Shown here: piece after piece, positions 5,039 to 51,174 of the stretch
Layout of the letters: every line of letters starts with the position of its first letter
Position numbering within the stretch: position 1 is the first letter of the stretch
Source: an uncultured Chloroflexia bacterium
GTDB taxonomy: Bacteria > Chloroflexota > Anaerolineae > Anaerolineales > UBA4823
Assembly (NCBI GenBank): GCA_963840255.1
Contig: CAWIYB010000003.1
Location: 193,314-257,313, forward strand
Direction of reading: 5' to 3'
Length of the DNA stretch: 64,000 nt
Position numbers and translations under genes: made by a program
The notes under the pieces: model-generated
What the model saw: the letters and a program-made list of their open reading frames with translations, nothing else
Told to the model about the DNA's origin: nothing
Database searches by the model: none

Positions 5039-5054
5039 CAAAGGAGATAAGGAT

Positions 5055-5483: not shown

Positions 5484-5515
5484 CGCAGACACAGGATGTG
5501 AGGAGCCATAACATT

Positions 5516-7309: not shown

Positions 7310-7323
7310 AAGAGGTGCCAGCC

Positions 7324-14649: not shown

Positions 14650-15633
14650 ATGGAATATGTACGATTAGGTTCAACCGGGATGAAAGTCTCACGCATCTGC
14701 CTCGGTTGCATGGGGTTTGGGGATGCGGAGCGGTGGGTTCACAAATGGGTTCTCACCGAGGAAAATAGCCGGCCGATCATTAAGAAAGCCCTCGAGCTGG
14801 GGATCAACTTCTTCGATACAGCCAACGTTTATTCCATTGGAAAGAGTGAGGAGATCCTCGGACGCGCTTTGAAGGATTTCGCCAATCGGGACCAGGTCGT
14901 CATTGCCACCAAGGTACGCGGTAAAATGCACGACGGACCGAATGGCGAAGGTCTGTCGCGCAAGGCGATCCTAAGCGAGATCGACAAAAGCCTGAAGCGG
15001 CTTGAGGTGGATTATGTCGACCTTTACCAGATCCATCGCTGGGATTACGAAACTCCAATTGAGGAGACGATGGAAGCGCTACATGACGTGGTGAAGGCCG
15101 GCAAGGTCCGTTACATCGGAGCTTCTGCCATGTTCGCCTGGCAGTTCCAGAAAGCGCTGTATGTTGCTGAGAAGCATGGGTGGACCCGCTTCGTCTCGAT
15201 GCAGGATCATCTGAACCTCATCTACCGTGAAGAGGAACGTGAGATGCTGCCACTTTGCCGCGAGGAGAAGATCGGTGTGATCCCGTATAGTCCACTCGCA
15301 TCGGGAAGATTGACGCGTGACTGGTCATCGGAAAGCACTCTTCGTTCCGAAACCGATCAAATCGCGAAAAGCAAATACGATGCGACAGCCGAAACGGATC
15401 GACGAGTGGTGGTGCGGGTCGCGGAGATTGCAGAAAAGTATGGGGTTCCGCGCGTGCATATCGCACTCGCCTGGTTGTTACAGAAAGAGCCTGTGACCGC
15501 GCCCATCATTGGGGCAACGAAGATCACCCATTTGGAAGATGCCGTCGGCGCTCTGTCCGTTAAACTGACGCAGGAAGATGTGGCATACCTGGAAGAACCT
15601 TATGTTCCGCATCACATCGTTGGTCATCAATAA
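14650..15633 (+). CDS. aldo/keto reductase (paralog 2)
   Basis: MEYVRLGSTGMKVSRICLGCM, FFDTANVYS and DLYQIHRWD motifs. Confidence 0.9.
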   Translation: MEYVRLGSTGMKVSRICLGCMGFGDAERWVHKWVLTEENSRPIIKKALELGINFFDTANVYSIGKSEEILGRALKDFANRDQVVIATKVRGKMHDGPNGEGLSRKAILSEIDKSLKRLEVDYVDLYQIHRWDYETPIEETMEALHDVVKAGKVRYIGASAMFAWQFQKALYVAEKHGWTRFVSMQDHLNLIYREEEREMLPLCREEKIGVIPYSPLASGRLTRDWSSESTLRSETDQIAKSKYDATAETDRRVVVRVAEIAEKYGVPRVHIALAWLLQKEPVTAPIIGATKITHLEDAVGALSVKLTQEDVAYLEEPYVPHHIVGHQ

Positions 15634-19179: not shown

Positions 19180-22100
19180 ACCTCTCCAAGATAAAGACGG
19201 GAGTCTACATCTGCCACTGCGGGACAAACATCGCCGGAAAAGTGGATGTTAAAGCCGTAGTGGAATTTGCCCAGACGCTTGATGGAGTCGTGCTGGCACG
19301 CGATTACACTTACATGTGTTCAGACCCAGGTCAGGATTTGATCAAGCAGGATATTCGTGAACAGGGACTGAACCGGGTGGTGGTAGCTTCTTGTACGCCC
19401 CTGATGCACGAACCGACTTTCCGCAGGGCATGCCGGGAAGGGGGATTGAACCCGTTCTTCTTCCAGATGGCAAATATCCGCGAGCATTGCTCGTGGGTTG
19501 TAGATGACCCCGGGATGGCAACAGATAAAGCCAAGCACATGGTCAGCGCAGCGGTCAGCCGAGTTCACCACCACCGCCCCCTGAACATGCGCTCAGTGGA
19601 TATGGACCAAAGTGCGCTGGTGGTGGGTGGGGGCATCGCCGGGATTGAAGCTGCCCTTCGCCTGGCAGATGCCGGCAAGAAGGTATACATGGTGGAGCGT
19701 GAGCCAAATATCGGTGGGCACATGGCTCAACTTTATAAGACATTTCCCACTCTAGACTGTGCAGCCTGAATACTTACACCGAAAATGGTGTCCGTTGGAC
19801 GCCACGAAAACATCAGCCTGCTGAGCTACAGTGAAGTTGAAAATATTTCCGGGTACGTGGGCAACTACCAGGTGCGGGTGCGCCGAAAGGCACGCTTTGT
19901 GGATGAAAGCCAATGCACCGGCTGTGGGAAGTGCGCTGACGTCTGCCCAGTGGATGTGATAAACACTTTTGACAAAGGGTTGAGCACCCGTAAAGCCACC
20001 TACCGTAATTCAGCCCAGGCAGTGCCCGGCGCGTTCGTGATCGAGAAACGCGGCATCGCACCCTGCCGGGCTGCCTGCCCCACCGACCAGCGCGCCCAGG
20101 GATACATTGCCCTGATCAAACAAAAGCGCTACGCGGATGCTTATTGGGCCATCCGGCGGGAGCATCCATTCCCTTCGGTGTGCGGGCGGGTATGCAACCG
20201 GCGCTGTGAGGAGCAATGCAGCCGGGGCTTGTATGACGAACCGGTAAGTATCATGAAGCTGAAGTGGTTCGTCGCCGATTGGGCATATGAACACCGGGAT
20301 GAGCTGCCCAACATGCGCGATAAGTCATTGGTGGGCACGCCGTTCTCCCACGACCCAACTCCAACGGGCAAGAAAGTCGCCATCATCGGTGCAGGACCGG
20401 CGGGAATGACGGCAGCCTTGGACCTGGTGCGCATCGGTCACCAGGCAACGGTATTTGATTCACTACCCATCGCGGGCGGGATGATGCGGGTGGGTATCCC
20501 ACCGCACCGCCTGCCGTACGACCGCCTGGATTGGGAAATCCAGCAAATTGTGGATGAAGGCGTTGAGATGAAGTTAAGCACGCGGGTGTACGACATCCCC
20601 GGCTTGTTTACCAAAGGCTATAACGCCGTGGTCATCGCAACCGGCGCCCACAGTGCCTGGAAGCTGAACATCCCCGGCACCGAGCACCCCGATAACTGGC
20701 TGAGCCTGGATTTACTTCGCAGGGCGTGCCTGGGGGAGAAAATTGACCTGAGTGGGCGCGACATTGCCGTGATCGGGGCGGGGGATGTCGCCCTTGATGC
20801 AGCACGAGTATCCGTCAGGCTGGGAAGCCCTAAGGTAAAAATAGTGTGCCGCGGTATGCGTGCCTCATTCAATGAGCTCGACGAAGCAAATAAGGAAGGG
20901 GTGGAAATCATCCGCAACCGGGTGTTCAAGGAAGTGGTCATCCGGGAGAATAAAATTATTGGCATCCGCTGCGTGGAAGCCAAGGTGGGGGCGATCGTCA
21001 ATGGTAAACGTCAGGTGGAGGAGATTCCCGGCACCGACCATGTGATCCCATGTGACCTGGTGATCTGGGCAGTCGGGCAGCAGCCAGACTTCAGCTTCTT
21101 ACCAGAAGGCTCGCACATCCGCAAGCTCAGCTCCATGGGACTCGAGACGGATGATGAGATGATGACCAGCATGCCGGGAGTATTTGTCGCGGGTGATGTA
21201 CGCCGGGGAACCACCTTCTTTGTGGTGGACGCAATCGGCGAAGGTCACCACGTGGCAAGGTGCATCGACCGATTCCTGCGTGGACCAGAAGGGATTCAGG
21301 AACCACCCAGGCTACCCACGGCCACCTTTACGAAAGACGAAGTGGGTAAATTGATGGAGACCGGTTGGGCGGCGGAGAACCCACGGGCTAAAACTCGCAC
21401 CATCCCAGCAGAAGAACGAGTGAACAATTTTAAGGAAGTCGACCTGACGCTAAGCGAAGAAGAGGCACTTGCTGAAGCGGAGCGGTGTTTACGGTGCGGC
21501 ATTTGTTCGGAATGCCTTGAATGCCTGTCAGCGTGCGAGCGCGGGGCGATTGACCATGACATGAAAGACAGCATCCTTGACTTGAAGGTAGGTACGATCG
21601 TCCTGGCAACCGGTTTCAAGGATTTTGATCCATCACGGATCCCCGAGCTGGGCTACGGTCAATTGGAAAATGTGCTCACCTCGATGGAATTCGAGCGCTT
21701 GATCAATGCCAGCGGTCCCACCAGTGGCAAGGTGATGCTTAAAAATGGCGAGGCACCAACAAAGGTCGCTATTGTGCATTGCGTTGGCAGCCGGGACGAT
21801 AAATACAATGAATACTGCTCGCGAGCGTGCTGCATGTACTCGCTTAAACTGGCTCAGCTGGTGCACGATTATATGGGTGCCGAAGTACACGAAATCTACA
21901 GAGATATGCGCACATTCGGTAAAGATTATGAAGAGTTTTATAACCGCACACGCAGCAAAGGGGTTAATTTCTACCACGGGCGGGTGAAAAGCATCAAAGC
22001 GCAGGACGGGCAGCTGGTGGTCAAATGGGACGAGAGCTTCTTCAACCAGCCTGACCACATCGAGGTGGATATGGTTATCCTTTCCACCGGTTTCGAAGCC

Positions 22101-22586
22101 CAGGCGGATGCCGCCAAAGTGGCGAGCATGTTCGGAGTCAGCCGCAGTCCTGATGGGTTCTTCCTTGAGAAGCACCCCAAGCTGGCACCGGTGGAGACCT
22201 CGACGGAGGGCATTTATATCGCCGGGGCCTGCCAAAGCCCCAAGGATATCCCTGATAGTGTAGCCCAAGCCGGGGGTGCAGCCGCAGCAGCCCTATCCCT
22301 GCTCGACCAGGGGACGATTGCACTTGACCCGTCGGTGGCTTCGGTGAACCTGCTGCGCTGCGCAGGCTGCGGCTTATGTGTCAATGCCTGCCCGTACAGC
22401 GCCATCGAGTTGAAGGAGAGTGTAGCTTCGGTGAATACCTACCTGTGTAAAGGCTGCGGCACCTGCGCCTCAACCTGTCGTGACAAAGCCATCACCTTGA
22501 TCCATTTCGATGACTCACAAATCGTCAACGAGATGATCGGCGCGCTGGCTTTTGAACCGGTTGTTCCCGGGATCCTCAATCAATAG
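19176..22586 (+). CDS. HdrA-like flavoprotein with an in-frame TGA (19767-19769) and an inserted GltD/NfnB-like NAD(P)H-FAD module
   Basis: Track ORFs 19176..19769 and 19785..22586 share a frame, and the junction reads TLDCAA-U-ILTPKMVSVGRHENI. An insertion (about 20055-21480) carries GRVCNRRCEEQC, KKVAIIGAGPAGMTAALDL, RDIAVIGAGDVALDAARV and PGVFVAGDV, resembling the glutamate synthase small subunit. The start overlaps the upstream stop codon (ATGA). Confidence 0.8.
19786..19804 (+). promoter_or_regulatory. candidate bacterial SECIS hairpin for hdrA copy 2
   Basis: The same UGGUGUCC-GUU-GGACGCCA hairpin, also 17 nt after the UGA. Confidence 0.5.
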
Positions 22587-29862: not shown

Positions 29863-29930
29863 CATTATCGGTATAGAAATGCATATCGGTATAGAATCAT
29901 ATCGGTCAGAGATCATATCGGTATAGATCA
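29863..29930. repeat. about four tandem 16-nt units of the type CATATCGGTATAGAAT
   Basis: cattATCGGTATAGAaatg / catATCGGTATAGAat / catATCGGTcAGAgat / catATCGGTATAGAt. Confidence 0.85.
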
Positions 29931-30036
29931 ACCGATACAGGAGGGCACTTACCGATACAGGAGGGCACTGACCGATACAGGAGAGCACTGACCGATACAG
30001 GAGAGCACTGACCAGATACAGAAGGAGAGCACTTCC
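29931..30036. repeat. four exact-length 20-nt tandem units ACCGATACAGGAG(G/A)GCACT(T/G) plus one degenerate unit
   Basis: Units lie at 29931, 29951, 29971 and 29991, with a degenerate copy at 30011-30036. The CCGATAC core is the reverse complement of the upstream ATCGG repeat core. Confidence 0.9.
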
Positions 30037-39403: not shown

Positions 39404-39628
39404 CGGGGTAGCGTAGGCAGGCGGGTATAACAGCACCACGATGGTTTTGGATGTAAAACTGTAAAGCACACCTCCTCTTCTGGGGTGAGTTTTGGGAGGG
39501 GTTGGAGCATGTCAAGGAGAATAAAGGTCGTTCTACTGGCCGTGTTATTCGTTCTGGCAATCCCTGTTTATACTTCGGTCGCCCTTCCCTTCGCCTTCAC
39601 CAGTTATCTCCCGCAGGGACGCTCTTTT

Positions 39629-39659
39629 CCTCCCCCATTTAGTCTCTAAATGGGGGAGG
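39629..39659. repeat. G/C-capped hairpin, family C
   Basis: CCTCCCCCATTTAgtctcTAAATGGGGGAGG. Confidence 0.75.
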
Positions 39660-39698
39660 CCTGGTCCCCCCTGGGTTTGGGGGGAGAGGAGGGGGTGC

Positions 39699-40258
39699 TC
39701 ACTCCGCAGGCGGGTGCTCGGTCTTTTTCGCCAGCTTGCGGATGCGCTCCAGCTTGAGCTCGCCGGATGCGCCCCAACCGGCAGTCCCTTCGGGCACGCC
39801 GGGCGGAACTGCTCGTAGAGCCTGTAGGCGTGCTGCTCGAGCTCCAGCGGAGGGAAAGTCTCTGCCAGGCTTTCCAGGGCAGCCTGCACCTCACCCAGCG
39901 CATCACCGAACTTTTTCTCCAGGTAGCGCTCGACGCTTTTGGGATCGATGGCCTCACCTTTGGCGGTTGCCCGCAGCCCGCTCTCCGTTTGTATCGCCGG
40001 CACCATTCTGCCCACCACTTCCACCAGCCGCGTTTCGCCCGCCTGGGGTTGCCTGGAACTTTCGGCAATTTTCGCCTCCAACTCCATTTCGGACGGTGAA
40101 AAAATGCCCAGGCGCTGGCCTTTGGATTGGGCGTTTAGCCCCGCCACGGCTTTCCCGAGGGTCAGGGCTTCGTCATGCTGGTAGCCGAGCCTTTCCGCCA
40201 CGATGACGCCCCACAAAGTGAGTACCGGGGCGCGGTTGACCTTGATGGTATCTGCCAT
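39699..40258 (-). pseudogene. conserved hypothetical gene with a probable 1-nt frameshift near 39795-39800
   Basis: The N-terminal 165 aa (MADTIKVNRAPVLTLWGVIVAERLGYQHDEALTLGKAVAGLNAQSKG...AYRLYEQFRPA) look genuine. The same frame then gives low-complexity text that runs through repeat C. The shifted frame reads VPEGTAGWGASGELKLERIRKLAKKTEHPPAE and stops at 39699-39701. Confidence 0.5.
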
Positions 40259-40334
40259 GCTGCTGTCCTCCTGAGGTGCCTGTGGATGGATGGAATTGTA
40301 CCTCCGGCGACCTCATTCGGTCAGCTCGACCGCC

Positions 40335-41171
40335 TCAGGCACCCCAGACTTCTCGGCGAGGCTCGATTTCCATCCACACGGATAGGGCGGAGACCGCTAC
40401 CAGCATCAACACGATGGCGATGAAATAGGGGTTCATCAGGCTGCCATTATTGAAATCCTGGCGGTGGATGATGCTGCCGATCACCATCAGCACCTGCCCC
40501 AGGATAATTGCCTGCATGTTGTAACGCCAGGCACTCCAGCGCCTCTCCCCATACAAGACGATCCCATCCACTGCGGTGAGCGCCCCCCAGGCGCAGATCG
40601 TCCGGGCGGTGAGCGGGGTCAGCGTCCACGGCCAGATGGAAATCAGCCAGGGCGGGTTGATGAAGCTGACCAGCCAGAACAGCAGGGTGAGGATGCCGAT
40701 CAGGCCAGCGATCTGCCTGACAAGTTTTGGCACTTCCCTGTCGCGGGCTTCCAGCGTGCCGGGGTCAGTCACCCGGTTGTGGTACCACAGCCAGGGGACT
40801 AAAAATGGGGTGATGATGTAGATCACCAGCCATGCTATGAATGAGAAGTTGGAGTGGATGAACCGGTCGTAATGCAGCAGTGTCACCAGCAGCATGCTGG
40901 CCGCAAAGGCGGTCACCGGCAGCAGGCTGATGTGCACCCGGTGCCACAAGCGGCCGAAGATGGCGAACAGGAACATATAGGCACCCGATAGATAGCCGGC
41001 GCCCATAAACACCGCCATGATCTGGGGCTTGATCTCCCAGGCGAAGCTCGTGCGGGTGGTGTGTGGGAAGAAATACAGGATCACGAATGCCGTCACCAGC
41101 ACCAGGACGACGGCTGCCAGGACGATGCGGGTAATGGGGAAGATGCGGTCATCACGTAGGTTACGACTCAT
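40335..41171 (-). CDS. polytopic membrane protein of unknown function
   Basis: About eight hydrophobic segments. No motif recognized. Confidence 0.6.
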   Translation of the reverse strand: MSRNLRDDRIFPITRIVLAAVVLVLVTAFVILYFFPHTTRTSFAWEIKPQIMAVFMGAGYLSGAYMFLFAIFGRLWHRVHISLLPVTAFAASMLLVTLLHYDRFIHSNFSFIAWLVIYIITPFLVPWLWYHNRVTDPGTLEARDREVPKLVRQIAGLIGILTLLFWLVSFINPPWLISIWPWTLTPLTARTICAWGALTAVDGIVLYGERRWSAWRYNMQAIILGQVLMVIGSIIHRQDFNNGSLMNPYFIAIVLMLVAVSALSVWMEIEPRREVWGA

Positions 41172-41294
41172 TGTGTTTTCCTCCTGTTGAGTTTGTGGAT
41201 GGATGAAGTTGTGTGTCGGATATAAAAACCGATATCCGACTATTCAGATGAACTATATTATATAATAAAATTGTCAAGTGTGCTACGGGTGAAT

Positions 41295-41327
41295 GCGTGG
41301 AGGCCCCCCACTGTGGGACGTCTCTAC
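41295..41327. repeat. REP-like palindrome, family A (degenerate 5' arm)
   Basis: GCGTGGAGGCCCCCCactgtGGGACGTCTCTAC. Confidence 0.5.
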
Positions 41328-41360
41328 ACTGATAAATCCAGGTTGGGTTTCGGGCGTACC

Positions 41361-41452
41361 TGTAGGGGCGACCCGCCCGATAGCGTCGAGAAAACGCGGA
41401 CAGCCAGGATTGTGCGGTAGAACGGAACGAAGATGGTCTTGAAGGGTCGCCC
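41361..41452 (+). repeat. 92-nt MITE-like element, family B, copy 1
   Basis: Termini GGGCGACCC...GGGTCGCCC are inverted repeats. By hand count, 79 of 92 positions are identical, ungapped, to the copy at 50856. Confidence 0.85.
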
Positions 41453-41547
41453 ATTAAAAAAAACTGCCCCCCACTGCAACTGGAGAGGGCCTGCCCCTCA
41501 CTGAATCTAGAGGGGGGCCACCCCGCCGAAGCGTCTATCTTTTTTCT

Positions 41548-41583
41548 CCTCCCCTGATTCCCGTTTTTGGGAATCGGGGGAGG
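41548..41583. repeat. G/C-capped hairpin, family C
   Basis: CCTCCCCTGATTCCCgtttttGGGAATCGGGGGAGG. Confidence 0.75.
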
Positions 41584-41687
41584 CGGGAGGGGGGTACGGT
41601 CTTCATATTTTCGCTTTAGGCGTATGTTTATTTTTATAACCTCACCTCCTGGTTCCTTTTTTAGATTTCTCATCTTACGTAGGGAAC

Positions 41688-41715
41688 TTGACTATACATC
41701 AAACTGATGTATAGT
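41688..41715 (+). promoter_or_regulatory. sigma70-like promoter with an embedded dyad, upstream of the LTD gene
   Basis: TTGACT, 16 nt, then TATAGT. The spacer carries CTATACATC-aaact-GATGTATAG. Confidence 0.5.
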
Positions 41716-41774
41716 ATAAGGCAGTAGGATTATTCACCACGTTATTTCGCACAATATACAGGAGGGATGTAGCC

Positions 41775-42302
41775 ATGGTTAGGGGTAAAAAACCAGTTAT
41801 ATTGGCGTCTTTATGCATATTGATTTTAGCATTTCCAATTTATGTTACCTGGGCAGCCAGTGCCGCTGGACATAGTTTTTACCTACCGATCATCAATAAG
41901 GCGAAATCCTCTACGGCGACGTATAGCACGGTCTATCCAACGGTGATCGTCCCAACGAATACACCTCAACCGCCAAATACTGGAAACATTATTATTACAA
42001 ACATTATATATGAAGGTTCAGGACAAAATGAACCGGATGAGTACGTAGACATCCGGAATATTGAACCATACGGAATTCAACTATCCAACTGGACCCTCCG
42101 TGATAATGCCAATCACGTTTTTACTTTCCCAAGTTTTTCTATACTACCAAATCAGACGTGCCGTGTGTATACAAACCAGGATCATCCTGAATATTGTGGG
42201 TTTAATTATGGATCGGGGAATCCCATCTGGAATAATTCTGGCGGAGATTGCGCGTACTTACGCGACGCATCTGATGCGTTGATTGATGAATATTGTTATT
42301 AA
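41775..42302 (+). CDS. secreted lamin-tail-domain (LTD) protein
   Basis: A signal/TM segment, then NEPDEYVDIRNIEPYGIQLSNWTLRDNANHVFTFPSFSILPNQTCRVYT...IWNNSGGDCAYLRDASDALIDEY, which follows the LTD pattern. Confidence 0.7.
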   Translation: MVRGKKPVILASLCILILAFPIYVTWAASAAGHSFYLPIINKAKSSTATYSTVYPTVIVPTNTPQPPNTGNIIITNIIYEGSGQNEPDEYVDIRNIEPYGIQLSNWTLRDNANHVFTFPSFSILPNQTCRVYTNQDHPEYCGFNYGSGNPIWNNSGGDCAYLRDASDALIDEYCY

Positions 42303-42633
42303 TGCGAAAGGGAAATTAGCCTGTAACCATTTATTTGGAAAGACGGTCCACTGGGAAGCCTAATCTTGCGGGGATTGTCTATTTGTAGAGAAGCCATGGT
42401 GAGGCGTATTAGCTTACTAGCAGGTTTTAACATAACTGTTTATTATCTTCTGCTTTTCCCCAAATAATAATTTTCCTTTTCGCAGAAGATTGTTTAAGTA
42501 TTTTTTCGTCTGATGATTATAACAACATATAAATAATTTATATTCGCTAGAATTAAATACTCGAATTAATTGTATTTATTCTTGCATTATCGGAAAGAAT
42601 GTTACACCAACGAACGTAAATGATCTATTTATT

Positions 42634-43371
42634 TTACGGAGTGATAGACTCAATAAATAGATCATAGGTATCTAATACATCTACTGTGCGATTACCAAAA
42701 CTCAAATTCCATTTCTGGAACTCGGGAAATCGGTCCCAAACTTTCTTGTAAAAATTTTTGAATATAAAACGGATAAAGTGCCCAATTGAAATTGGCCCAT
42801 AGACAGGAATTCTGCACTCTCGATTTATTGTTGTTAAATGCGAATTTGGGTGACCCTTTTTTTTAATATTAATATCATAATCAAATCTAATTGGTGATGA
42901 TGCACGTAAAGCACCTTTATAACCAGAAAAATCTAGATCACTTAAACAATTATTCAATTGATCAGCTTCATCCTCTAGGTACGTGTCAAAATATAATAAA
43001 ACATCATCACTTGTTTTGAATTTTTGTTCATCAATTTCAGAAAATAATATTGGAGAAGGATAATACCAGTAACGGTGCTTAATCAATATCTCTCCTTCAA
43101 ACAGACAACAAATCTGAAGTATTGAACCATCATATAACAATCCATTAAAGTAACGATTTTGAATTAGGTATCGATATTCCTGTATTGATGCAAATTCTCC
43201 ACCAAGAATTGTAAATAATGAGTGCGGAGCGCCAGCCCATGTTATTGATGTAGTGTTGTCACCTTCATTATCTCGAATGATAGCCGGTATATAGTCAACA
43301 ATTATTTCTTTGTCGAGAAGTAGTATGAATATTTTATTTATCTCATCCACCATCGAATTTTTATTCATCAT
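42634..43371 (-). CDS. uncharacterized 245-aa partner of the helicase (possibly DUF2290-like)
   Basis: AT-rich gene whose start overlaps the helicase stop codon by 11 nt. No TM segments and no motif I can assign firmly. Its size and context fit the small partner of Helicase+DUF2290-type pairs. Confidence 0.4.
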   Translation of the reverse strand: MMNKNSMVDEINKIFILLLDKEIIVDYIPAIIRDNEGDNTTSITWAGAPHSLFTILGGEFASIQEYRYLIQNRYFNGLLYDGSILQICCLFEGEILIKHRYWYYPSPILFSEIDEQKFKTSDDVLLYFDTYLEDEADQLNNCLSDLDFSGYKGALRASSPIRFDYDINIKKKGHPNSHLTTINRECRIPVYGPISIGHFIRFIFKNFYKKVWDRFPEFQKWNLSFGNRTVDVLDTYDLFIESITP

Positions 43372-45499
43372 TTTCTATATTCTTCAAGAGATCAAGTAAT
43401 TTTGAACGCAATTCTCGCGGTAAATTTTCCGCTGACATGTTTCCCTTTTGTATTTGTTCCACGAAATAGCTCAGGTTCTCCTCAAATTTTTGGTATTTTT
43501 CTCTTTCTTGAGGTGTCATATCGCGATAGAGTTTTCTCATCCTTTCAAGTTCGGGTTCAGTAGGTACTTTGAATGTTAAATTGTAATCATTCTTTTTCAC
43601 TTGCTCAATCTCTAATTTCAACCCTTTCATACCTGATCCACAACCAAATAAGCGTACCCAAGCTTTTGATCGAGTTATTGCAGTGAAAATAATATTTCTG
43701 CGTCTGGTGAGTTCTGTACCTTCAAAGGCATAATCCGAATTGAGTATATATACCATGGGAGCTTCGTTACCTTTCGCTCTATATATACTAGATATAGCTA
43801 TCGCATCATCATTGAATAATTCATCGAGGCTACTTGTAACACCGGCTAAGTGTCCAGGTATACCTAGTTCATTCAACTCTTTTAAAATAGTTACAGCTTC
43901 TTGTTTTGCGGTATATGCTTCCGGAAGGACAATAAGGATGTCGCGCATCTCTAGTTCACCTTCGCTCAAATCTATTTTTATTTGTTTAGCGACGGCTTTT
44001 GCTTGGGCAAATTTATCTGGGAATATCTCGCACTTAATACAATCATTTGGTTCAATTAAACGAGTTATATAGTCTGGATACGAACCCGGACGCCGTTTCA
44101 AATTAACAATATTTCCAGATAAAAACTGACCAGCAACAAGCTCGTATCCAACTTCCTCCCATAGTCCTTTGGGATCATTAAAATATTGAATTAATCCACC
44201 ATCATGGTAGATTCCAAAACCTAGCGCATGTGCGATAGCTAAAGCCCATGGAGTATTTCTGTAGCACACAGGCAAGACAATATCTTGGGATGGATTACCC
44301 TTGATATTCCGCAGCTGTGATACATGAGGATTTCCCTCCTTATCAGATCCGAACAATTCTGATGGATATAACATTGTAAAATTACTTAGATTTTGTAGTT
44401 CATCATAAGCATATATAATTCGTTTCGGTTTTTTCGCGGCTAAATATGCAAGTCTAAAAAAAGAACCGGGAAAGTCTTGAGCTTCATCCACAAGGATTAC
44501 ATCAAATATTGGTTCAAATGCATCCTCATTTATTTCTGTAATTAATTCAGAGCATACTGCATCAAATGCAAAGGCTGTGCTTGTTAACTGTTTTCCATAA
44601 TTAAAATTTTTTGGAGTGATACCTTGTGCTTTAGCCACTTCAGAATAAAATCCCGGTTGACTAACACCTCCCCAAGCGTGGATTATTCTCAAGCGGTTCC
44701 AATCCGGCTCATCATGAATCTGATCCCATGTAAACCGCCTAACCAATTCCTCAAACTGTTGATACAGAGACCGTGTTTGAAAAGTTATAGCTATCGTCCA
44801 ATCCTCATGTATTGCATACAGATATGCGGCCTTGAGAGCTAACACAATTGTTTTCCCAGAGCCGGCCAAGCCGCGGATGCGTTGAACACCATCTGGAGTT
44901 TCAATAGCTGCGTTATTCTGCCATTTATCAAGGTTGTATACTTCTTTTTCAATTGTTTTTAATATTGCGCCTCTTGAGTCATCTTTCTTAATATTTGATC
45001 TTTTTCTTGGAGGCCTAACGTTTGTAACTCTCTCGATAGCGGCATTAATATCTTTTAGCAAATTGTTATCAATCGGATCAAAGCATGTAATTAATTCAAG
45101 AAAGTTATCTAGTCCAGAAATTAATAAATCCTCTTCTTGGATGATTTCGTGAATTTCCGGAACCAAAGTAACAATTTTCACAGGAAATGCTAATTCCCTA
45201 CCATTCATAAGAGATTTATAGCCCTTAAGTTTTATTTCGAGGATTCGATAAAGATCATCTTGTTTTTGCCTAATCGGTTCAAAATTAATTTGTTCCGCGG
45301 TTCTATCATCGAAATCGATGACTATAAGCCCATGTTCTTTACAGATTAATAGAGCGTCTATCACAATTTTATTATCCAAATCTGTTAGAACGGGATATCC
45401 GATGAATAACATCCCATTCAAGTCAGCCTCAGAAAGGAGCGTAATCAATTGCTCTACAGCAAGGGGATTTTTCTTCTGACCAACGGATAAATTAAGCAT
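43361..45499 (-). CDS. NERD-like N-terminal domain fused to an SF1 (UvrD/Rep-like) helicase/ATPase
   Basis: The N-terminus NKIVIDALLICKEHGLIVIDFDD resembles the NERD core but lacks the Lys. Other motifs are Walker A GLAGSGKT, motif II VILVDEAQDF, PVCYRNT, SIYRAKGNEAPMVYI and IFTAITRSKAWVRLFG. Confidence 0.7.
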   Translation of the reverse strand: MLNLSVGQKKNPLAVEQLITLLSEADLNGMLFIGYPVLTDLDNKIVIDALLICKEHGLIVIDFDDRTAEQINFEPIRQKQDDLYRILEIKLKGYKSLMNGRELAFPVKIVTLVPEIHEIIQEEDLLISGLDNFLELITCFDPIDNNLLKDINAAIERVTNVRPPRKRSNIKKDDSRGAILKTIEKEVYNLDKWQNNAAIETPDGVQRIRGLAGSGKTIVLALKAAYLYAIHEDWTIAITFQTRSLYQQFEELVRRFTWDQIHDEPDWNRLRIIHAWGGVSQPGFYSEVAKAQGITPKNFNYGKQLTSTAFAFDAVCSELITEINEDAFEPIFDVILVDEAQDFPGSFFRLAYLAAKKPKRIIYAYDELQNLSNFTMLYPSELFGSDKEGNPHVSQLRNIKGNPSQDIVLPVCYRNTPWALAIAHALGFGIYHDGGLIQYFNDPKGLWEEVGYELVAGQFLSGNIVNLKRRPGSYPDYITRLIEPNDCIKCEIFPDKFAQAKAVAKQIKIDLSEGELEMRDILIVLPEAYTAKQEAVTILKELNELGIPGHLAGVTSSLDELFNDDAIAISSIYRAKGNEAPMVYILNSDYAFEGTELTRRRNIIFTAITRSKAWVRLFGCGSGMKGLKLEIEQVKKNDYNLTFKVPTEPELERMRKLYRDMTPQEREKYQKFEENLSYFVEQIQKGNMSAENLPRELRSKLLDLLKNIENDE

Positions 45500-45694
45500 T
45501 TAAACCACTCCTGTTAGGATAAAAGCAATTTAAATTACAATCGGGTAGTTATTAATGAAATCATTTTTATCTATGCCTAATAATAAATAACGTTTCTCAA
45601 TAAAGCGCACTATCTGCTGTGTGCCTTAAAAATAAATACATCCAAATTTAGAGTGTGAATCAACTTTTTACGGCAATTGCCATCAATTTATTTA

Positions 45695-45799
45695 TCAGTT
45701 TAAAATGGTCTTACGCGGCACGCTCTCGTTGCGCGTCCCACCATACCGGATCATCTGGTCGACCTTGGCATAATACTGCTGTATTAACTGAATGGACAT
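45695..45799 (-). pseudogene. 34-codon remnant resembling the N-terminus of large RM/DNA-methyltransferase-helicase proteins
   Basis: MSIQLIQQYYAKVDQMIRYGGTRNESVPRKTILN*. It sits in a locally G+C-richer patch inside the AT-rich island. The assignment is from memory of the pattern only. Confidence 0.25.
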
Positions 45800-45988
45800 G
45801 GTGTTGTCTTATCGAAAAGAAATTCGGATGGAGAATTATCGGCTGATTCCAGTATAGCATGATTCTTATAACACCCTCAACTTCCTCTCATACTCTTACT
45901 GGAATGATCACTAATTGGGATATATCTATTAGTTGATTTATTTTTCCCCGTTAATTCACCTTTATTTTGGTCATTGGCAAGGCTTTTA

Positions 45989-46912
45989 TTATTTTTCTGT
46001 ATTCTTATGTAATTGAATTAACAATCGTATAAAATTTCCAGTCAGATAAATCATAAACTCAATCTCCTCAGGAGACCAATAATCACCATGTTTCACATTC
46101 TCATTTTGATATATTCGGTAATTTTGGAATAATAACTCATTGAACATATTAACAATCTGTTGATTAATATTTTTTTCTTTTATCCAATATAGTAGTTCCA
46201 TTTTTTGGTTCTCTAATGTCTTCTTATTACCGAGAATGGTTCTTAGTAATTGCTCAAGAGCTAGTCTTAAATTATCCAGCAAATTGCGATATTTATCTAC
46301 ATCTCTCATGCCATAAATTAGAAGTGCTTCTTCAAAATGCTTTAAAACTTTTGGATAATCTTCCAACCATAGAAGATTATCGTTAACCAATTTATCGTCA
46401 AGTAGTTTGGCTCCAGCCGGGTAAAATAAAATTCCTGAATCGCGCTTTATAAGTCTGACATTTAGAGATGGACTTAGGTAAATGGCTTTCTGTACATCTT
46501 CAATAAAGGCATCAACGATATTCCGTGCTTCTGATTCTTCTTCTAGCACCCAAACTAAATATTGTAAAGCAGTAATTAATTGAATAAGCGATGAAGAGTT
46601 TTTTAATGTTATATAGACAATATTTTGAATAAATATACTGTTTTGTTGTTCTTCTTCCCATAACTGGAGTACTGCTCTGCTACCGATAACCGATCTAGGT
46701 TGTATAGGACTACCCATTAAGTATGCGAATTTATCACTAACACCTCTTCTAGATAACAAAAAATTTCCAAGTATCTTATCGGTAGAAAAAAGAATATGAT
46801 TTTGAAAAGATTCAAAATCATTTCTTTCCGAATAATTGATATTCCATCTGCTCCGAAATTGTTTTATTTTTTTTGAAATTTCCATATGAAACCAATTCCT
46901 TTCAATTTTCAA
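45989..46912 (-). CDS. uncharacterized alpha-helical protein (orphan in the island)
   Basis: A 307-aa AT-rich ORF with no TM segments. An alternative start lies at 46885 (MEISKK). No catalytic motif recognized. Confidence 0.5.
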   Translation of the reverse strand: MKIERNWFHMEISKKIKQFRSRWNINYSERNDFESFQNHILFSTDKILGNFLLSRRGVSDKFAYLMGSPIQPRSVIGSRAVLQLWEEEQQNSIFIQNIVYITLKNSSSLIQLITALQYLVWVLEEESEARNIVDAFIEDVQKAIYLSPSLNVRLIKRDSGILFYPAGAKLLDDKLVNDNLLWLEDYPKVLKHFEEALLIYGMRDVDKYRNLLDNLRLALEQLLRTILGNKKTLENQKMELLYWIKEKNINQQIVNMFNELLFQNYRIYQNENVKHGDYWSPEEIEFMIYLTGNFIRLLIQLHKNTEK

Positions 46913-47353
46913 GGATTTCTAGTATAGATTCGACGACTTATTCTCTTGATCAATCCTACCCTCAGAGTATACATATTGTATAGAGTATTATTAGTTTCAA
47001 GCTTTGTCAACCACGAAAAATTTCTTTGAAAAATATAATCTAGATTATTTATAGCCGTAAAAAGTCAGAAATCATAATAATATAATAAACCTTAAATCTT
47101 CATCGCCCTTGTGTTATCAGAATTAGTAATCTCCCAGGTCGGTCAGCGTTCTCCCATATCGCTATAAGTACTTTTGATCATCAAAATCCGTATTTGCGTC
47201 AATATAAAAACCCTGGTGAAGAATCAGCATTTTTCTTTAAAAAGCGAACTTTTTCTCCTGTAAATTCCTTCTTCAACTCGATATAATTCCATATTAAATG
47301 GTATCATATGATTAATAAGATATCTAGAATCGCTATATATCGAGGGGTTTCCA

Positions 47354-49267
47354 ATGGAATCAAAACAATTTAATAAGGCTCCTTTACTATCACGCTATGT
47401 GGTTTTTATCCTCGTTGCCTTTAATTTGCTCGTTTTAATCATCGGGCTATGCATATTATTTTTTTCAAAAAACCCATTCCGTCTTCCTCTCCTGCTTATT
47501 ATTTTCTTTTCTCTACTAATCTCATTATTTGGTGTTGCAATATTGAGTTATTTTTACAATAAGCAAGTTACCGTAAAAGAAAAACAGCATATATTACGTA
47601 CTTCTAAAAAGTTGGATTCGGAAATCGGGAGAATTGCGAGTGATGTTAATCTTCATATTACTAAAAAGTCTAATCTGCTTCAAGACAGAGATGCCGCATT
47701 ATCTAAACGCAGGAATGAATTCTCACAAAAAATTCGACATCTAAATAGGCATCGAAACGAGATTTCCTTATCTGAAAGTAATGAGATATCTTCGACCCTA
47801 TCTCACCTTCAGAATTCTTATATCAATCAGGGTTTACGTTTAGCCTTAATTAAGGATGCCAATATCTCAGGGATTGGGCCCAAGTTCAAGGAGCGCCTTA
47901 TAAAAAATGGTGTTATATGTGCCGCTCAGGTATCCTCTGAACGACTGAGTAACATTCCAGGGTTTGGAGAAGCAAAAGTTAGCAGTGTTGTTGCATGGCG
48001 GAGATATGTTGAAGCTGGCTTAGCTTCTTCTAAACCTGTTCGCGTGCCACCGGAAGTTGAAGAAAAGATTAGATCAAAACATGCGCAAGAACAATTAAAA
48101 GTCAATCAGGAAGAAAATATTGCTAAATTAGACCTGGAGACTGATTTAACAACGATTAAACAACGATATGATCATATGATCGTCGAAAACGATCAGGCCA
48201 GGTCGTTGGCTATAAAAAAACTAGCCACACATAGAGAAAATGCTGTTTATCTTGGAAACCAACTTAGGCTTTACGAGAAAATCACTCCAATAAGCTATTT
48301 GAGACACTTACTGTCTATTGATTCATCAATATCTGGTAAATTATTATTTGGCGCATACTCCTCAGTATTAATCTTGATTCCTCTTACCTTCATATTCCTA
48401 GGTACTGGGACAACTTTTTCTATGATCGTTGACTCGATTCCAACCCATACTTCAACACCAACAATAACACCTACAGCTACTTCAACCCAAACTCACACTC
48501 CAACATATACATTTACACCCTCAAAAACTCCAACGATAACCCTCACACCTACTCCATCTAACACTCCCACGATTACTCCCACTCCAACAATAACACCCAC
48601 CCCTACTCCAACTCTTATTCCTACCGAGACTCAAAGACCTTTGCCAACTTTACCCATCAATGTCGAATCTTGTATACCACGAAATACCCTTCGTCAGGTT
48701 GGTTATGTTGTCGGGGTAACAGACGGAGACACCATTGTGGTCACTCTCGAAGATGGTAATAATTATGAGGTTCGTTATATTGGTATGGATACTCCTGAAC
48801 AAGGAGATGTTGGTTATGGACCAGCTACGGTCCGAAATACCGAGCTTGTCTATGGAAAGAACGTTACATTGGTTCGTGATGTCTCTGAAATTGATCAATA
48901 CAAACGTCTTCTTCGATATGTGATCGTCGGTAACACGTTTGTAAATTACGAATTAGTAAAATCTGGTCTGGCGACCGCATATCGATATCCGCCGGATGTT
49001 TCATGTGCCTCAGCGTATTCAGAGGCTGAAAACTATGCAAGAACAAATCAGTTAGGTTTGTGGATTCCTGCTCCTGCTCCACTTCCGACAAATCCTCCGG
49101 GCAATGGTGGTGGAAATTGTGATCCTGCCTATCCGACAGTGTGTATACCTTCTCCACCACCTGATCTTGATTGCCCAGATATTCAATATCGTCGATTTCA
49201 AGTCCTTCCGTCTGATCCGCATAATTTTGACGGGGATCATGATGGAATCGGTTGCGAGTCAGGTTAA
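47354..49267 (+). CDS. membrane-anchored modular nuclease: 2 TM, coiled coil, HhH, TM, PT linker, SNase (thermonuclease) domain, Excalibur-like Ca-binding tail
   Basis: HhH-like GIGPKFKERLIKNGV...IPGFGEAKVSSV, a PT linker TPTITPTATSTQTHTPT...TPTPT, an SNase core VTDGDTIVVTLEDGNNYEVRYIGMDTPE...YKRLLRYV...ELVKSGLA, and the tail DGDHDGIGCES. Confidence 0.75.
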   Translation: MESKQFNKAPLLSRYVVFILVAFNLLVLIIGLCILFFSKNPFRLPLLLIIFFSLLISLFGVAILSYFYNKQVTVKEKQHILRTSKKLDSEIGRIASDVNLHITKKSNLLQDRDAALSKRRNEFSQKIRHLNRHRNEISLSESNEISSTLSHLQNSYINQGLRLALIKDANISGIGPKFKERLIKNGVICAAQVSSERLSNIPGFGEAKVSSVVAWRRYVEAGLASSKPVRVPPEVEEKIRSKHAQEQLKVNQEENIAKLDLETDLTTIKQRYDHMIVENDQARSLAIKKLATHRENAVYLGNQLRLYEKITPISYLRHLLSIDSSISGKLLFGAYSSVLILIPLTFIFLGTGTTFSMIVDSIPTHTSTPTITPTATSTQTHTPTYTFTPSKTPTITLTPTPSNTPTITPTPTITPTPTPTLIPTETQRPLPTLPINVESCIPRNTLRQVGYVVGVTDGDTIVVTLEDGNNYEVRYIGMDTPEQGDVGYGPATVRNTELVYGKNVTLVRDVSEIDQYKRLLRYVIVGNTFVNYELVKSGLATAYRYPPDVSCASAYSEAENYARTNQLGLWIPAPAPLPTNPPGNGGGNCDPAYPTVCIPSPPPDLDCPDIQYRRFQVLPSDPHNFDGDHDGIGCESG

Positions 49268-49400
49268 ATACCTATATGGTGTGTCTTCCAGGCTTGTAGC
49301 TAGTAATATTCTAGCTGATAAGAATCCTACCGTTAATCGAAGCAGCATTCACGAGGACAGCCCTCACCCCTCCTCCTGATATAATATTCCCACATCCAGT

Positions 49401-50252
49401 GTGCGCATGAAAACCGAGGCTTCAAGCCGTCACCACCACCCTACACGGAATTTGATCAAGGACTGGCTGTTCACCGTCAACCTGTTCTTCATCCTCTATT
49501 CGCTGGTGATGCTGGCGCAATTTATGATGGGACCAGAATCCGGGCGGGTGTCCACTTTGGTATGCAAGCCGGACCCGTGGGGAAAAGTGGTCTGCACGGT
49601 GAAGATCTACGGCGTCCATAAGCTGTTCCGGCTGGACTTCTACGCCGACGATTACATCAGGACGTTTACCTCGAGTAACTTTAACCTCCACTCATACCCA
49701 GGTCACTACCTCGACGACCTGTCCCTGCCCTGGAGCGGTCACTTGGAGGCTACCACTTCATATGATCATGTGTGTGCGGTTTCCATCCAAATCCAGTCGC
49801 AGGCGGTTGACTTCGTGCCCCCCTATCAGAGCGGGTCAGCCTGTTCCCGGGCGCAAAAGATGGTCGAGCAGGCTTTTGCCGGCGACCGGACGGCGATCGA
49901 TATCCGCTTCAACGGCCTCAACCCCAACCTGTACTGGCGGCTCGCCCTGCTGGGTATCGCCAGCCTGTTGTTTCTCGCCCAATGTGCCGTCAGGCTCAAG
50001 CACCGTCAGCGTCAGAAAAACGCCCTGCGCTTGGCTGATGATCAACCGATCACAGCTCAGCCTGCAACCGTAGGCGCCTTGGCAGACTCAGGCGTGCAGC
50101 CCGCCGGAGCAGGTCTCTCAAACGGGCTAGGCAGGGTGCGGTTTGTACTGTTTTGGTGGGCGGCCGCGGCCCTGGTGATTGCATTCGCAGTACTATCAGA
50201 CTTGCTGAATGAGCTGATCAGGACGAGATTTTATGCGGGAGGATGTTTTTAA
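49401..50252 (+). CDS. membrane protein of unknown function
   Basis: G+C-rich ORF with three hydrophobic segments. Confidence 0.5.
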   Translation: MRMKTEASSRHHHPTRNLIKDWLFTVNLFFILYSLVMLAQFMMGPESGRVSTLVCKPDPWGKVVCTVKIYGVHKLFRLDFYADDYIRTFTSSNFNLHSYPGHYLDDLSLPWSGHLEATTSYDHVCAVSIQIQSQAVDFVPPYQSGSACSRAQKMVEQAFAGDRTAIDIRFNGLNPNLYWRLALLGIASLLFLAQCAVRLKHRQRQKNALRLADDQPITAQPATVGALADSGVQPAGAGLSNGLGRVRFVLFWWAAAALVIAFAVLSDLLNELIRTRFYAGGCF

Positions 50253-50860
50253 ACATTCATGACTATCAGAAACTGTATTTACAGTACCCGTTCACGAATC
50301 TAATCTGCATCCTTCCCTTCATCATTCTTATCACCCTGGGGGCGGTGCTGCAGTGGCAGCTGATCAGGACGGAGGTGCCTGTCTCCCGCTGGTGGATCGC
50401 TGCCCCCACCCTCGCCGGCTTCCCCTTGCTGATCGGGGTGGTCATCCGTACGAGCTGTAGTGATTGCTCTGCCTTCAGCTACCCCTTCTTGCTGCTGGCT
50501 CAATCCGACCAGATTGAGGGCATTGTGTGGTGGACCATATCCTATTTTCTGATCCTCGGAGGCATGCAGTGGCTGATCTTGTGGTATGCCTTACGCATTT
50601 CCATCGTCTGGTCCATCTTCCCCCTGGTAGGAGCAGCTGTGGCAGACATCCTGTTTTTCCCCATGGTTTATGTGCTGATGTTTTATCTTTCCCCGCCGCG
50701 GATCATCATTGCCAGTTCGCCGCTCATTATTTTGGTCACTGCAATACTATCGCTGTTGGCGTCCATATTTAGCCTTGTGACGGGGTTCTACCTGCACCGG
50801 GCGATCCGGAAGCGGAAGACCAGCCTTGTGCAAGCGGTGCCTGATCAGGTGGATCTGTAG
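50243..50860 (+). CDS. polytopic membrane protein of unknown function
   Basis: Overlaps the upstream gene by 10 nt. Its stop codon lies inside repeat B copy 2. Confidence 0.5.
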   Translation: MFLNIHDYQKLYLQYPFTNLICILPFIILITLGAVLQWQLIRTEVPVSRWWIAAPTLAGFPLLIGVVIRTSCSDCSAFSYPFLLLAQSDQIEGIVWWTISYFLILGGMQWLILWYALRISIVWSIFPLVGAAVADILFFPMVYVLMFYLSPPRIIIASSPLIILVTAILSLLASIFSLVTGFYLHRAIRKRKTSLVQAVPDQVDL

Positions 50861-50947
50861 GGGCGACCCACTCGATAATGTCGAGAAAAAGCGGATAACC
50901 AGGATCGTGCGCTAGAACGGAACGAGGATTATCTTGAAGGGTCGCCT
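50856..50947 (+). repeat. 92-nt MITE-like element, family B, copy 2
   Basis: See copy 1. Same orientation. Confidence 0.85.
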
Positions 50948-51174
50948 GTACAAGTAAAAAAGGCAGGCGAATATCGGATATAATAGATTTTCTTTGTGTA
51001 ATTAAAAATACTGCCAACCTGCCCTGAAGTGTAACCGTTTTTTTGAAGGTATGTCAATGTTGGCAATCAGGGGTATGAGTAGCTCACGGCAGAGAAAGCA
51101 GCGGTCATTAAAGACACTCCTGTACCCTCCTACGGATATGCATTCTCAGACTGATCGAAAGGATAAAAAGGACT

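Follow-up and report, generated by a model that had tools for sequence, protein, structure and literature searches.

In the 64,000-nucleotide stretch of Chloroflexota chromosome analyzed here (hereafter the window), an AT-rich region probably represents a defense and accessory gene hotspot that is free of mobile elements and into which a foreign cargo of 7.07 kb was swapped, most likely through the conserved flanks. The region would be a defense hotspot of the ordinary sort rather than a novel type of element. The initial annotation of this DNA had assigned a nucleic-acid theme to the genes of the region; the matches to PADLOC models and the published work on one of the encoded systems (PMC9122126) point instead to anti-phage defense combined with an extracellular nuclease as the common theme.

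A low-GC block of variable cargo between conserved genes

The GC content is 0.36 at 41.6-49.3 kb compared to 0.55 in the rest of the window. The 1-kb bins between 42 and 48 kb range from 0.31 to 0.39, and even the highest of the inside bins lies 4 standard deviations below the mean of the 56 bins outside the island (0.547, standard deviation 0.039). The GC3 is 0.24-0.31 in the four inner genes and 0.38 in the gene for a lamin-tail-domain (LTD) protein, as against 0.53-0.82 in every flanking gene, and the combined fraction of Lys, Asn and Ile is 0.18-0.25 inside and 0.07-0.16 outside, with the exception of GroEL (0.20). The sharp drop in base composition at about 41.65-49.35 kb that had been noticed by eye is confirmed by the GC bins, the GC3 values and a two-change-point likelihood fit, which places the shifts at 41601 and 49340; likewise, the proposed check of sliding GC and codon usage showed that the inside genes have low GC3 and are rich in Lys, Asn and Ile, unlike the flanks. 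The originally assigned edges (41640-49350) therefore hold for the shift in composition but not for the indel, which really spans 42304-49374, the LTD gene and its promoter being older.

For comparison, we used three related Chloroflexota metagenome-assembled genomes (MAGs), namely L001, L002 and L003, which are the nearest genomes found, and the more distant L015. Both flanks of the region are common to L001 and L002, with which they are collinear at 82-88% nucleotide identity, and L003 has the left flank gene in common; the flank protein is 83-90% identical at the amino acid level to that of the nearest genomes, which are different species. The segment 42304-49374 (7.07 kb, GC 0.361), which extends from the stop codon of the LTD gene to the promoter of the gene at 49401, has no homology in L001 and L002 (all blastn matches lie outside the interval) and is absent from all three relatives. 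The related-genome comparison called for in the initial annotation thus supports its reading of the region as accessory DNA of foreign composition within a resident chromosome: the block behaves as an indel, and none of the three nearest genomes found has the same one. Neither a donor of the block nor an empty site was found. Because the nearest genomes are different species, we infer gain here as opposed to loss in the relatives, and the number of events, from this comparison.

The cargo at the locus differs in every relative compared (L001, L002 and L003). At the same site, L002 has genes for an SNase-LTD fusion, a K+ channel and a 519-aa DUF4365/REase-like protein, the last of these genes being AT-rich (GC 0.30-0.38). 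In L003, a different gene set adjoins the flank gene, and the gene at the contig end looks, by eye, like a putative type-ISP RM fragment; in L015, a nuclease of the same family as the one in the window is followed by AT-rich AAA_21 and RloB genes. The defense-type cargo of the locus consists of one validated system type and one candidate in the window, the DUF4365/REase-like gene in L002 and AAA_21+RloB in L015, a sample that is too small for statistics on defense enrichment and in which nuclease and channel genes are also among the cargo.

The left part of the AT-rich region has a different history. The promoter and leader of the LTD/nuclease locus (41678-41774, plus strand; TTGACT-16-TATAGT at 41688-41715) are about 90% identical to L002 8608-8517, and a segment of this stretch (41678-41747) shows about 90% identity to L001 4596-4527, which lies directly 5' of the SNase-LTD gene there. 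The adjacent gene (41775-42302, plus strand) encodes a secreted LTD protein of 175 aa (Pfam LTD, E-value 1.6e-20) which, compared with its counterpart in L002 (7984-8511), shows 84% amino acid and 88% nucleotide identity, and its GC3 is 0.38 in both genomes. Given that the LTD gene and promoter (41678-42303) are equally AT-rich and 88% identical at the nucleotide level in L002, they are older residents that lie outside the recent indel. Upstream of them, there is a perfect G+C-rich hairpin (41549-41582; CTCCCCTGATTCCC-GTTTTT-GGGAATCGGGGGAG), present in one copy in the window; a similar sequence is found elsewhere in L002, at 11017-10962.

The Helicase+DUF2290 pair

The five genes originally listed in the island are all present in the places assigned to them, but the supposed helicase pair consists of one helicase and a DUF2290 protein. 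The first gene of the pair (43361-45499, minus strand) encodes a 712-aa SF1 UvrD-like helicase that matches the PADLOC 'Helicase' model PDLC03002 (E-value 1.1e-228) over the full length (residues 1-706 against positions 1-705 of 707) as well as Pfam UvrD_C_2 and UvrD-helicase, contains an uncharacterized N-terminal domain of about 180 aa and has more than 5500 relatives. The second gene (42634-43371, also on the minus strand), which shares its first 11 nt with the end of the helicase ORF, encodes a 245-aa DUF2290 protein (Pfam DUF2290, PF10053, 2.2e-33; PADLOC PDLC02998, 1.4e-33) that retains all the family-invariant residues, namely R161, F162, D163, H173, H177, C185 and R186 (numbering of the window protein). 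The helicase-first order and the gene overlap are also found in L017-L020. Both models match, and the genes are adjacent and co-oriented with the helicase upstream; hence the pair is a predicted Helicase+DUF2290 defense system (DefenseFinder 'Rst_HelicaseDUF2290', PADLOC 'Helicase-DUF2290'), with the same order, overlap and strand.

The anti-T7 activity of Helicase+DUF2290 has been published for enterobacterial homologs only (Rousset 2022, PMC9122126), and this published evidence shows that phage T7 is blocked, no more. The system was first found in P4-like satellites (PMC9122126), and in Pseudomonas aeruginosa its deletion gave phage-specific effects; the literature surveyed, PMC9122126 included, gives no mechanism for the family. 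Whereas the published systems belong to a P4-like satellite/prophage hotspot, the window pair resides in a Chloroflexota chromosome; it is about 39% identical to enterobacterial plasmid copies, and 49 plasmid records from many phyla contain relatives of the helicase. The nearest helicase-DUF2290 cassettes adjoin BREX genes, type I RM genes and GmrSD, and are AT-rich even where the flanks have a GC content of 0.66-0.68. Like these known relatives, the window pair sits among defense-type genes.

The DUF2290 protein has a confidently predicted fold, for which the PDB yielded no match and which has no solved or viral structural relative. Hachiman (HamAB) and Gabija (GajAB) likewise combine a helicase with a small partner whose function was initially unknown, and GajB models give weak matches here; the DUF2290 partner, however, has no homology to HamA or GajA. 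The resemblance is one of analogy, not membership. By this analogy, the UvrD-like helicase would probably sense phage DNA or translocate along it, with the DUF2290 protein under its control as the effector.

The PDC-S32 protein and the membrane nuclease

The third gene of the block (45989-46912, minus strand) encodes a mostly helical protein of 307 aa which the initial annotation considered an orphan. This is not the case: the protein has 1037 representative homologs, with full-length relatives among them and with length and family conserved, and matches the PADLOC PDC-S32 model (PDLC04998, 9.3e-35), although the match spans only the C-terminal half (residues 150-304) and leaves the N-terminal 150 residues outside. 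It is a candidate single-gene defense protein, and a computational candidate only; PDC-S32 is not mentioned in the literature searched. The AlphaFold model (pLDDT 90.6) gives only a weak hint of a HEPN-like fold, and the best matches in the PDB are not significant (Csx1-Crn2, E-value 0.47; AF_0298, 1.0). HEPN ribonucleases carry an R-x4-6-H motif. The family-invariant residues of the protein (D172, R216, E220, K274, H275 and Y289) do not, by eye, make up this motif, and the assignment is not supported. A 34-codon ORF between this gene and the helicase (45695-45799, minus strand) had been suggested to be an RM-gene remnant, but it produced no Pfam hit, no tblastn hit in plasmids and no tblastx match to the BREX and RM genes beside the related cassettes.

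The fourth gene (47354-49267, plus strand) encodes a membrane-anchored nuclease of 637 aa with two TM segments, a coiled coil, an HhH motif, another TM, a PT linker, an SNase domain and an Excalibur-like tail. The SNase domain (PF00565; residues 473-570, 3.4e-15) scores 56.8 bits against a cut-off of 21; the HHH_5 and Excalibur Pfam matches are weak, and the NucI and EcnA models also match. The protein belongs to a family of full-length proteins of about 590-650 aa that is conserved in Anaerolineales. It shares the SNase domain with staphylococcal-type thermonucleases but differs from them by the three-TM, coiled-coil and HhH anchor and the Excalibur-like tail. A true SNc+LTD fusion, as in the PADLOC 'SNc+LTD' candidate C3a212, is found at this locus in the relatives, whereas the window nuclease lacks the LTD, which is encoded by a separate gene 5 kb away. 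The SNase head would be located outside the cell, probably degrading extracellular DNA, and the SNase and LTD genes may be unrelated to defense.

The use of the same PT-type linker in the nuclease and in core genes had been taken as evidence of residence in this genome. This argument is weak, given that the GC3 of the linker is 0.24 (A/T-ending codons) in the nuclease, compared with 0.66 for a core PT linker, the whole nuclease gene being at 0.24-0.31. The linker shows Chloroflexota ancestry of the gene rather than long residence in this genome.

The four genes of the block are adjacent, have similar GC3 and are jointly missing from the relatives, and the existence of the SNc+LTD candidate family in PADLOC could also suggest that they form one co-evolved multi-gene system. 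We consider this unlikely because neither S32 nor SNase genes neighbor the helicase-DUF2290 cassettes that are closest to this one (77% and 64% identity), the relatives of S32 and of the SNase protein occur in unrelated contexts, and the genes lie on opposite strands with spacers of 440-490 nt.

Repeats, mobility and the origin of the block

The repeat cluster reported to the left of the island proved real with respect to repeat B, whereas the short 'C' motif (GCCCCCCACTG), with 3 local copies, does not exceed chance expectation in the window as a whole (4 found vs 1.9 expected). Repeat B is a structured 100-nt element with an invariant closing stem (GGGGCGACCC/GGGTCGCCC) and is present at 41357-41456 and, in G+C-rich resident DNA, at 50852-50951 (both plus strand; 113 and 107 bits, respectively, with covariance model R1). 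The two copies (41350-41451 and 50845-50946 in the alignment) are in direct orientation, 84% identical and 9.5 kb apart, and the second one indeed lies 1.5 kb past the right edge, as originally described. Repeat B adjoins variable cargo in four Anaerolineae genomes, with no other site in the 286 kb searched. It is conceivable, if rather improbable, that repeat B serves in this lineage specifically as a recombination or regulatory element, marking the hotspot and helping to reload it; if true, its role would be in a type of cargo exchange for which the island itself would not have to encode an integrase.

The direct copies that bracket the region, and the first finding of Helicase+DUF2290 in P4-like satellites, could also be taken to indicate an integrative mobile element (a genomic island, prophage remnant, phage satellite or ICE) inserted site-specifically, with repeat B as the duplicated att site. 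This is very unlikely. In L002, repeat B occupies both matching positions (9718-9817 on the left, 175-274 on the right) with other cargo between them, so that it is resident sequence rather than an insertion scar and is not a mechanistic boundary of the island; in L001, one copy is in a third position. The copies in the window also enclose G+C-rich core genes (49401-50860), and the junction alignments show no repeat at the real breakpoints (42303/42304 and 49374/49375). The initial report of no integrase, tRNA or obvious att repeat at the edges is corroborated: the interval 41-51 kb has no gene for an integrase, recombinase, transposase or phage structural protein, the ORFs of 70 aa or more in 38-53.5 kb encode no integrase or recombinase domain, and the tRNAs of the window are at 8.1 and 61.0 kb only.

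That assembly or binning has wrongly placed foreign DNA in a Chloroflexota contig might be suspected from the sharp change in composition, the apparent origin of the sequence from a metagenome-assembled genome and possible nearby frameshifts suggestive of error-prone reads. Such a chimera is nevertheless highly improbable: both junctions are at gene boundaries collinear with L002, L002 also has the AT-rich LTD gene, AT-rich cargo occurs at the locus in independent relatives as well, the nuclease family is named from Anaerolineales, and a single contig of 706,278 bp is recorded as the source of proteins identical to the helicase and to the DUF2290 protein. The case against a chimera comes from the collinear flanks in the relatives, not from the PT linker. 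Equally hard to credit is a long residence of the block at low GC under local constraint (expression, silencing or protein composition), followed by loss in the relatives: the LTD gene demonstrates that low GC can persist here, but the block is missing from the three relatives, the ancestral position beside the promoter or the LTD gene is occupied in two of them by a different nuclease allele (SNase-LTD, 334 aa), the SNase core of the window protein is only 56% identical to theirs vs 71% to a more distant genome, and the nearest relatives of the helicase cassette are in unrelated contexts.

We favor exchange of cargo at a resident hotspot. An older resident operon lies between two conserved core genes; its promoter is conserved, it encodes a secreted LTD protein and a nuclease of the SNase type that is also secreted, and different lineages keep different low-GC cargo there. 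In the window lineage, the interval 42304-49374, from the LTD stop codon up to the promoter of the core gene that follows, would have been replaced by the foreign block that brought in Helicase+DUF2290, the PDC-S32 candidate and a different, membrane-anchored SNase allele. Because integrase, tRNA, att site, transposase and phage genes are all absent, the most likely route appears to be recombination of incoming DNA by way of the conserved flanks, a route suggested earlier for the core defense hotspots of Pseudomonas. Hotspots of lower GC that lack mobile elements, and the idea of recombination in the flanks, are described in PMC10250203 and PMC10121019.

Implications

The locus resembles cDHS1 and cDHS2 of P. 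aeruginosa (PMC10250203) and the E. coli hotspots (PMC10121019) in the conserved flanking core genes, the variation of cargo between relatives, the GC content below that of the genome, the lack of obvious mobilization genes and the presence of a structured non-coding element beside the site. The element that neighbors the locus here is the 100-nt repeat B, whereas cDHS2 is flanked by the ssrA tmRNA (PMC10250203); the cargo is small (7 kb) compared with those hotspots, and the case here rests on only three or four related genomes as against hundreds.

For discovery, this adds little beyond a catalog entry and a pointer to DUF2290, which, with its confidently predicted fold, is a worthwhile structural target. 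For annotation, this low-GC block is to be read as defense cargo rather than mis-assembly. The locus provides a clean example of a defense hotspot outside Proteobacteria that bears no mobile-element signature and extends Helicase+DUF2290, a validated but mechanistically unexplained system, to an uncultured lineage of Chloroflexota.

AT-rich region and its gene content

The six 1-kb bins between 42 and 48 kb of the window have a GC content of 0.31-0.39, against a mean of 0.547 (sd 0.039) for the 1-kb bins outside the region in the 64-kb window, so that even the highest of the six, at 0.39, lies 4 sd low. A finer profile places the drop at ~41.55 kb and the renewed rise at ~49.35 kb, and a two-change-point likelihood fit yields positions 41601 and 49340, in accurate agreement with the island coordinates read by eye in the initial annotation. 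The same contrast with the flanks, borne out at the level of coding sequence, is seen in GC3, which is 0.25 for the DUF2290 gene, 0.30 for the helicase, 0.24 for S32 and 0.38 for the LTD (lamin-tail domain) gene, and 0.24-0.31 across all three parts of the nuclease gene, compared with 0.53-0.82 in all flanking genes. The combined Lys, Asn and Ile fraction is 0.18-0.25 in the island genes and mostly 0.07-0.16 outside.

The region encodes a secreted LTD protein (41775-42302, forward strand), a DUF2290 protein (42634-43371, reverse strand; Pfam 2.2e-33, PADLOC 1.4e-33) whose gene overlaps by 11 nt that of a 712-aa SF1 UvrD-like helicase (43361-45499, reverse strand; matched end to end by the PADLOC 'Helicase' model of Helicase-DUF2290, 1.1e-228), the S32 protein (45989-46912, reverse strand; PADLOC candidate family PDC-S32, 9.3e-35) and an SNase nuclease (47354-49267, forward strand; SNase domain, 3.4e-15). 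The nucleic-acid theme originally ascribed to these genes missed their defence theme, which the matches to the Helicase-DUF2290 and PDC-S32 models bring out. The region is most likely a small defence hotspot with a known type of system.

Domain searches detected no integrase, transposase or phage structural families among the genes of the region, and the only tRNAs in the window are at 8.1 and 61.0 kb. A prophage or satellite origin was rejected, the PHROGs matches being just generic helicase, nuclease and LTD-type ones. A peptide once suspected to be a remnant of a restriction-modification (RM) gene may resemble type IIG or PglX methyltransferases at their N-terminal end; Pfam, plasmid tblastn and tblastx searches gave the remnant idea no support. 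Scanned against Rfam, the stretch 39-53 kb showed a single match, a sub-threshold skipping-rope hit within the S32 gene, which was put down to chance.

The locus in related genomes

When one genome from each species was searched with the protein encoded in the left flank (40335-41171), three close relatives emerged, all Chloroflexota MAGs labelled Chloroflexia or Anaerolineae, namely L001 (90% identity), L002 (88%) and L003 (83%). At the nucleotide level, the window is homologous to L002 in three stretches, 40302-41516, 41678-42303 and 49375-50843, the second of which comprises the LTD gene with its promoter (88% identity), and block 42304-49374 has no nucleotide match in L001 or L002. On the left, homology stops a few bases past the LTD stop codon; on the right, it restarts 26 nt ahead of gene 49401, in a stretch that contains TATAAT. 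The junction alignments at 42304 and 49374 revealed no repeat at either.

The relatives carry other content, in part AT-rich and of a defence-like kind, at this site or close to it, which makes the region a plastic locus. In L002, the LTD gene is directly followed at its 3' side by a gene for a lipoprotein-type SNase-LTD fusion of 334 aa and next by one for a K+ channel, beyond which the DNA is AT-rich (GC 0.30-0.38) and encodes a DUF4365/REase-like protein (519 aa; 3935-5494). L001 lacks a separate LTD gene, and the same promoter lies directly 5' of its SNase-LTD gene. A two-component system adjoins the flank gene in L003, and the end of that contig (72-776) holds an AT-richer gene that by eye resembles a C-terminal fragment of a type-ISP RM protein. 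In the more distant genome L015, the gene for the related nuclease likewise precedes one for a K+ channel, and an AT-rich AAA_21+RloB pair (5440-7375) comes after them.

Sequence comparison points to a longer residence of the LTD gene, which is AT-rich in the window and L002 alike (GC3 0.38). The view that the island is accessory, foreign-looking and resident is upheld, with a reduced extent: the recent indel spans 7.07 kb (42304-49374), a little less than the compositional island, and leaves out the LTD gene. Metagenomes searched with the LTD protein for same-species contigs or an empty site yielded a best match of 51% identity and no near relatives. Joining of foreign AT-rich DNA to this contig during assembly is unlikely, because the junctions are collinear with the relatives, the AT-rich LTD gene is common to the window and L002, and the relatives have parallel AT-rich cargo.

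Several further differences surround the locus. L002 contains an IS5-family transposase fragment (9166-9591), absent from the window, which separates the conserved intergenic DNA on the left from the promoter of the LTD gene. It also has a second LTD paralogue (14953-15468; ~52% identity to the window LTD) next to its orthologue of gene 39545. No intact second paralogue is present in the window, whose positions 39463-39617 are 84% identical to L002 15514-15360, the paralogue start and the DNA just upstream. The 237-aa ORF at 39545-40258 (reverse strand) has a low-complexity tail unlike its relatives (the L001 orthologue has 180 aa and another C-terminus), probably owing to a frameshift, real or a sequencing error. 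The overlapping ORFs 49401-50252 and 50243-50860 correspond to a single 484-aa ORF in L002 (936-2390), reflecting either a frameshift in the window or a gene fusion in L002.

The helicase-DUF2290 pair and the S32 protein

The closest relatives of the helicase (77% and about 64% identity) are encoded in short operons of matching layout that adjoin PglZ/BREX-type genes, a type I RM system and GmrSD; these cassettes have a GC content of 0.31-0.41 and stay AT-rich even beside DNA at 0.66-0.68. Remoter full-length relatives (39-45% identity) occur in 49 plasmid records from many phyla. As far as sequence similarity goes, this distribution is typical of mobile defence cassettes. A Helicase+DUF2290 homologue from P4-like satellites stops phage T7 (PMC9122126), and deletion of Helicase+DUF2290 renders P. 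aeruginosa more susceptible to subsets of phages. By analogy with Hachiman and Gabija, the helicase would be the sensor and DUF2290 the effector. The 187 N-terminal residues of the helicase, unmatched in domain searches, look NERD-like by eye.

The AlphaFold model of DUF2290 (42634-43371; pLDDT 91.5, pTM 0.89) has no significant fold match in the PDB or among predicted viral structures (BFVD) at E <= 0.001, and a sequence search against solved structures gave nothing significant; from the model, the fold of this component of a defence system appears to be uncharacterised so far. The family-invariant residues R161, F162, D163, H173, H177, C185 and R186 suggest a putative catalytic or metal-binding site.

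The S32 protein had been labelled an orphan, mistakenly given its PDC-S32 match and 1037 relatives (representatives at 50% identity), mostly full length. Its model is mostly helical (pLDDT 90.6). Similarity to HEPN is not significant, a fold search at E <= 0.001 and a sequence search against solved structures returned nothing significant, and the invariant residues, judged by eye, do not make up the HEPN motif. That the four inner genes form one single system is not supported, because the closest helicase cassettes lack S32 and the nuclease.

The membrane nuclease

The nuclease comprises two TM helices and a coiled coil, a region that weakly matches helix-hairpin-helix (HhH), another TM helix, a Pro/Thr linker, the SNase domain and an Excalibur-like tail. 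This whole architecture is common to about two dozen proteins of 590-650 aa, one of them named from Anaerolineales, and the possibility that the 637-aa protein is a fusion born at the island junction was accordingly discarded. With the SNase head predicted to face outward, the protein would degrade extracellular DNA. The head shares 71% identity with the L015 relative and only 56% with the SNase found in the closest genomes, which marks it as a replacement allele rather than a diverged resident gene.

Residues 1-364 (47354-48445), with the two TMs, coiled coil, HhH and third TM, recur in P0027 and P0029-P0032, and proteins sharing this anchor carry other outward-facing heads, DUF3761 and Excalibur. 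Within Anaerolineae, the anchor appears to act as a membrane module that can be reused.

Repeats and route of acquisition

Repeat B, a putatively structured element of about 100 nt, occurs in direct orientation at 41357-41456 and 50852-50951. A covariance model built from five copies and run on 286 kb of DNA detected six copies in all, every one beside the locus with variable cargo, in four Anaerolineae genomes: the two in the window, two at equivalent positions in L002 (9718-9817 and 175-274), one in L001 (3204-3303) with the SNase-LTD gene on one side and gene 49401 on the other, and a diverged one (65 bits) in L015 at the edge of AT-rich cargo (8723-8821). The closing stem is invariant (GGGGCGACCC/GGGTCGCCC); compensated changes affect 2 of 28 pairs, and covariation is uninformative because the copies are too alike. 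Repeat B has no Rfam match in the scan of 39-53 kb and none in viral contigs.

The initial annotation took the repeats for boundaries of the island. L002, however, has both copies with other cargo, and G+C-rich core genes lie between the copies, so the copies are not att sites of the present insertion. An integrative element as the source of the block is contradicted by these repeats, conserved in a relative with different cargo, and by the absence of an integrase, tRNA and att site. The window and its relatives have differing nuclease alleles, which contradicts a long residence of the block with later loss from the relatives. We favour recombination through the conserved flanks, by which the block would have arrived, because there is no mobility gene and the flanks are exactly collinear. 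Such a route has been proposed for the core defence hotspots of Pseudomonas, in which GC is likewise below that of the genome (PMC10250203; PMC10121019).

Among other repeats, the short C motif is no more frequent in the window than expected by chance, and the hairpin at 41549-41582 has one copy in it. A lower-GC intergenic stretch at 29868-30030 contains about 4-5 tandem copies of ACCGATACAGGAGGGCACTG (20 nt). Ahead of them lie several ATATCGGTATAGA motifs, in part the reverse complement of the 20-nt unit, and the arrangement resembles an iteron or an array for regulator binding. Three pairs of diverged direct repeats at 17279-22297 (68-74% identity over 234-300 nt) indicate paralogous genes that arose by tandem duplication.

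Conclusions

New from the present analysis are confident models of DUF2290 and S32, together with the set of invariant DUF2290 residues. The system itself is of a known type, now found in an understudied phylum, the Chloroflexota.
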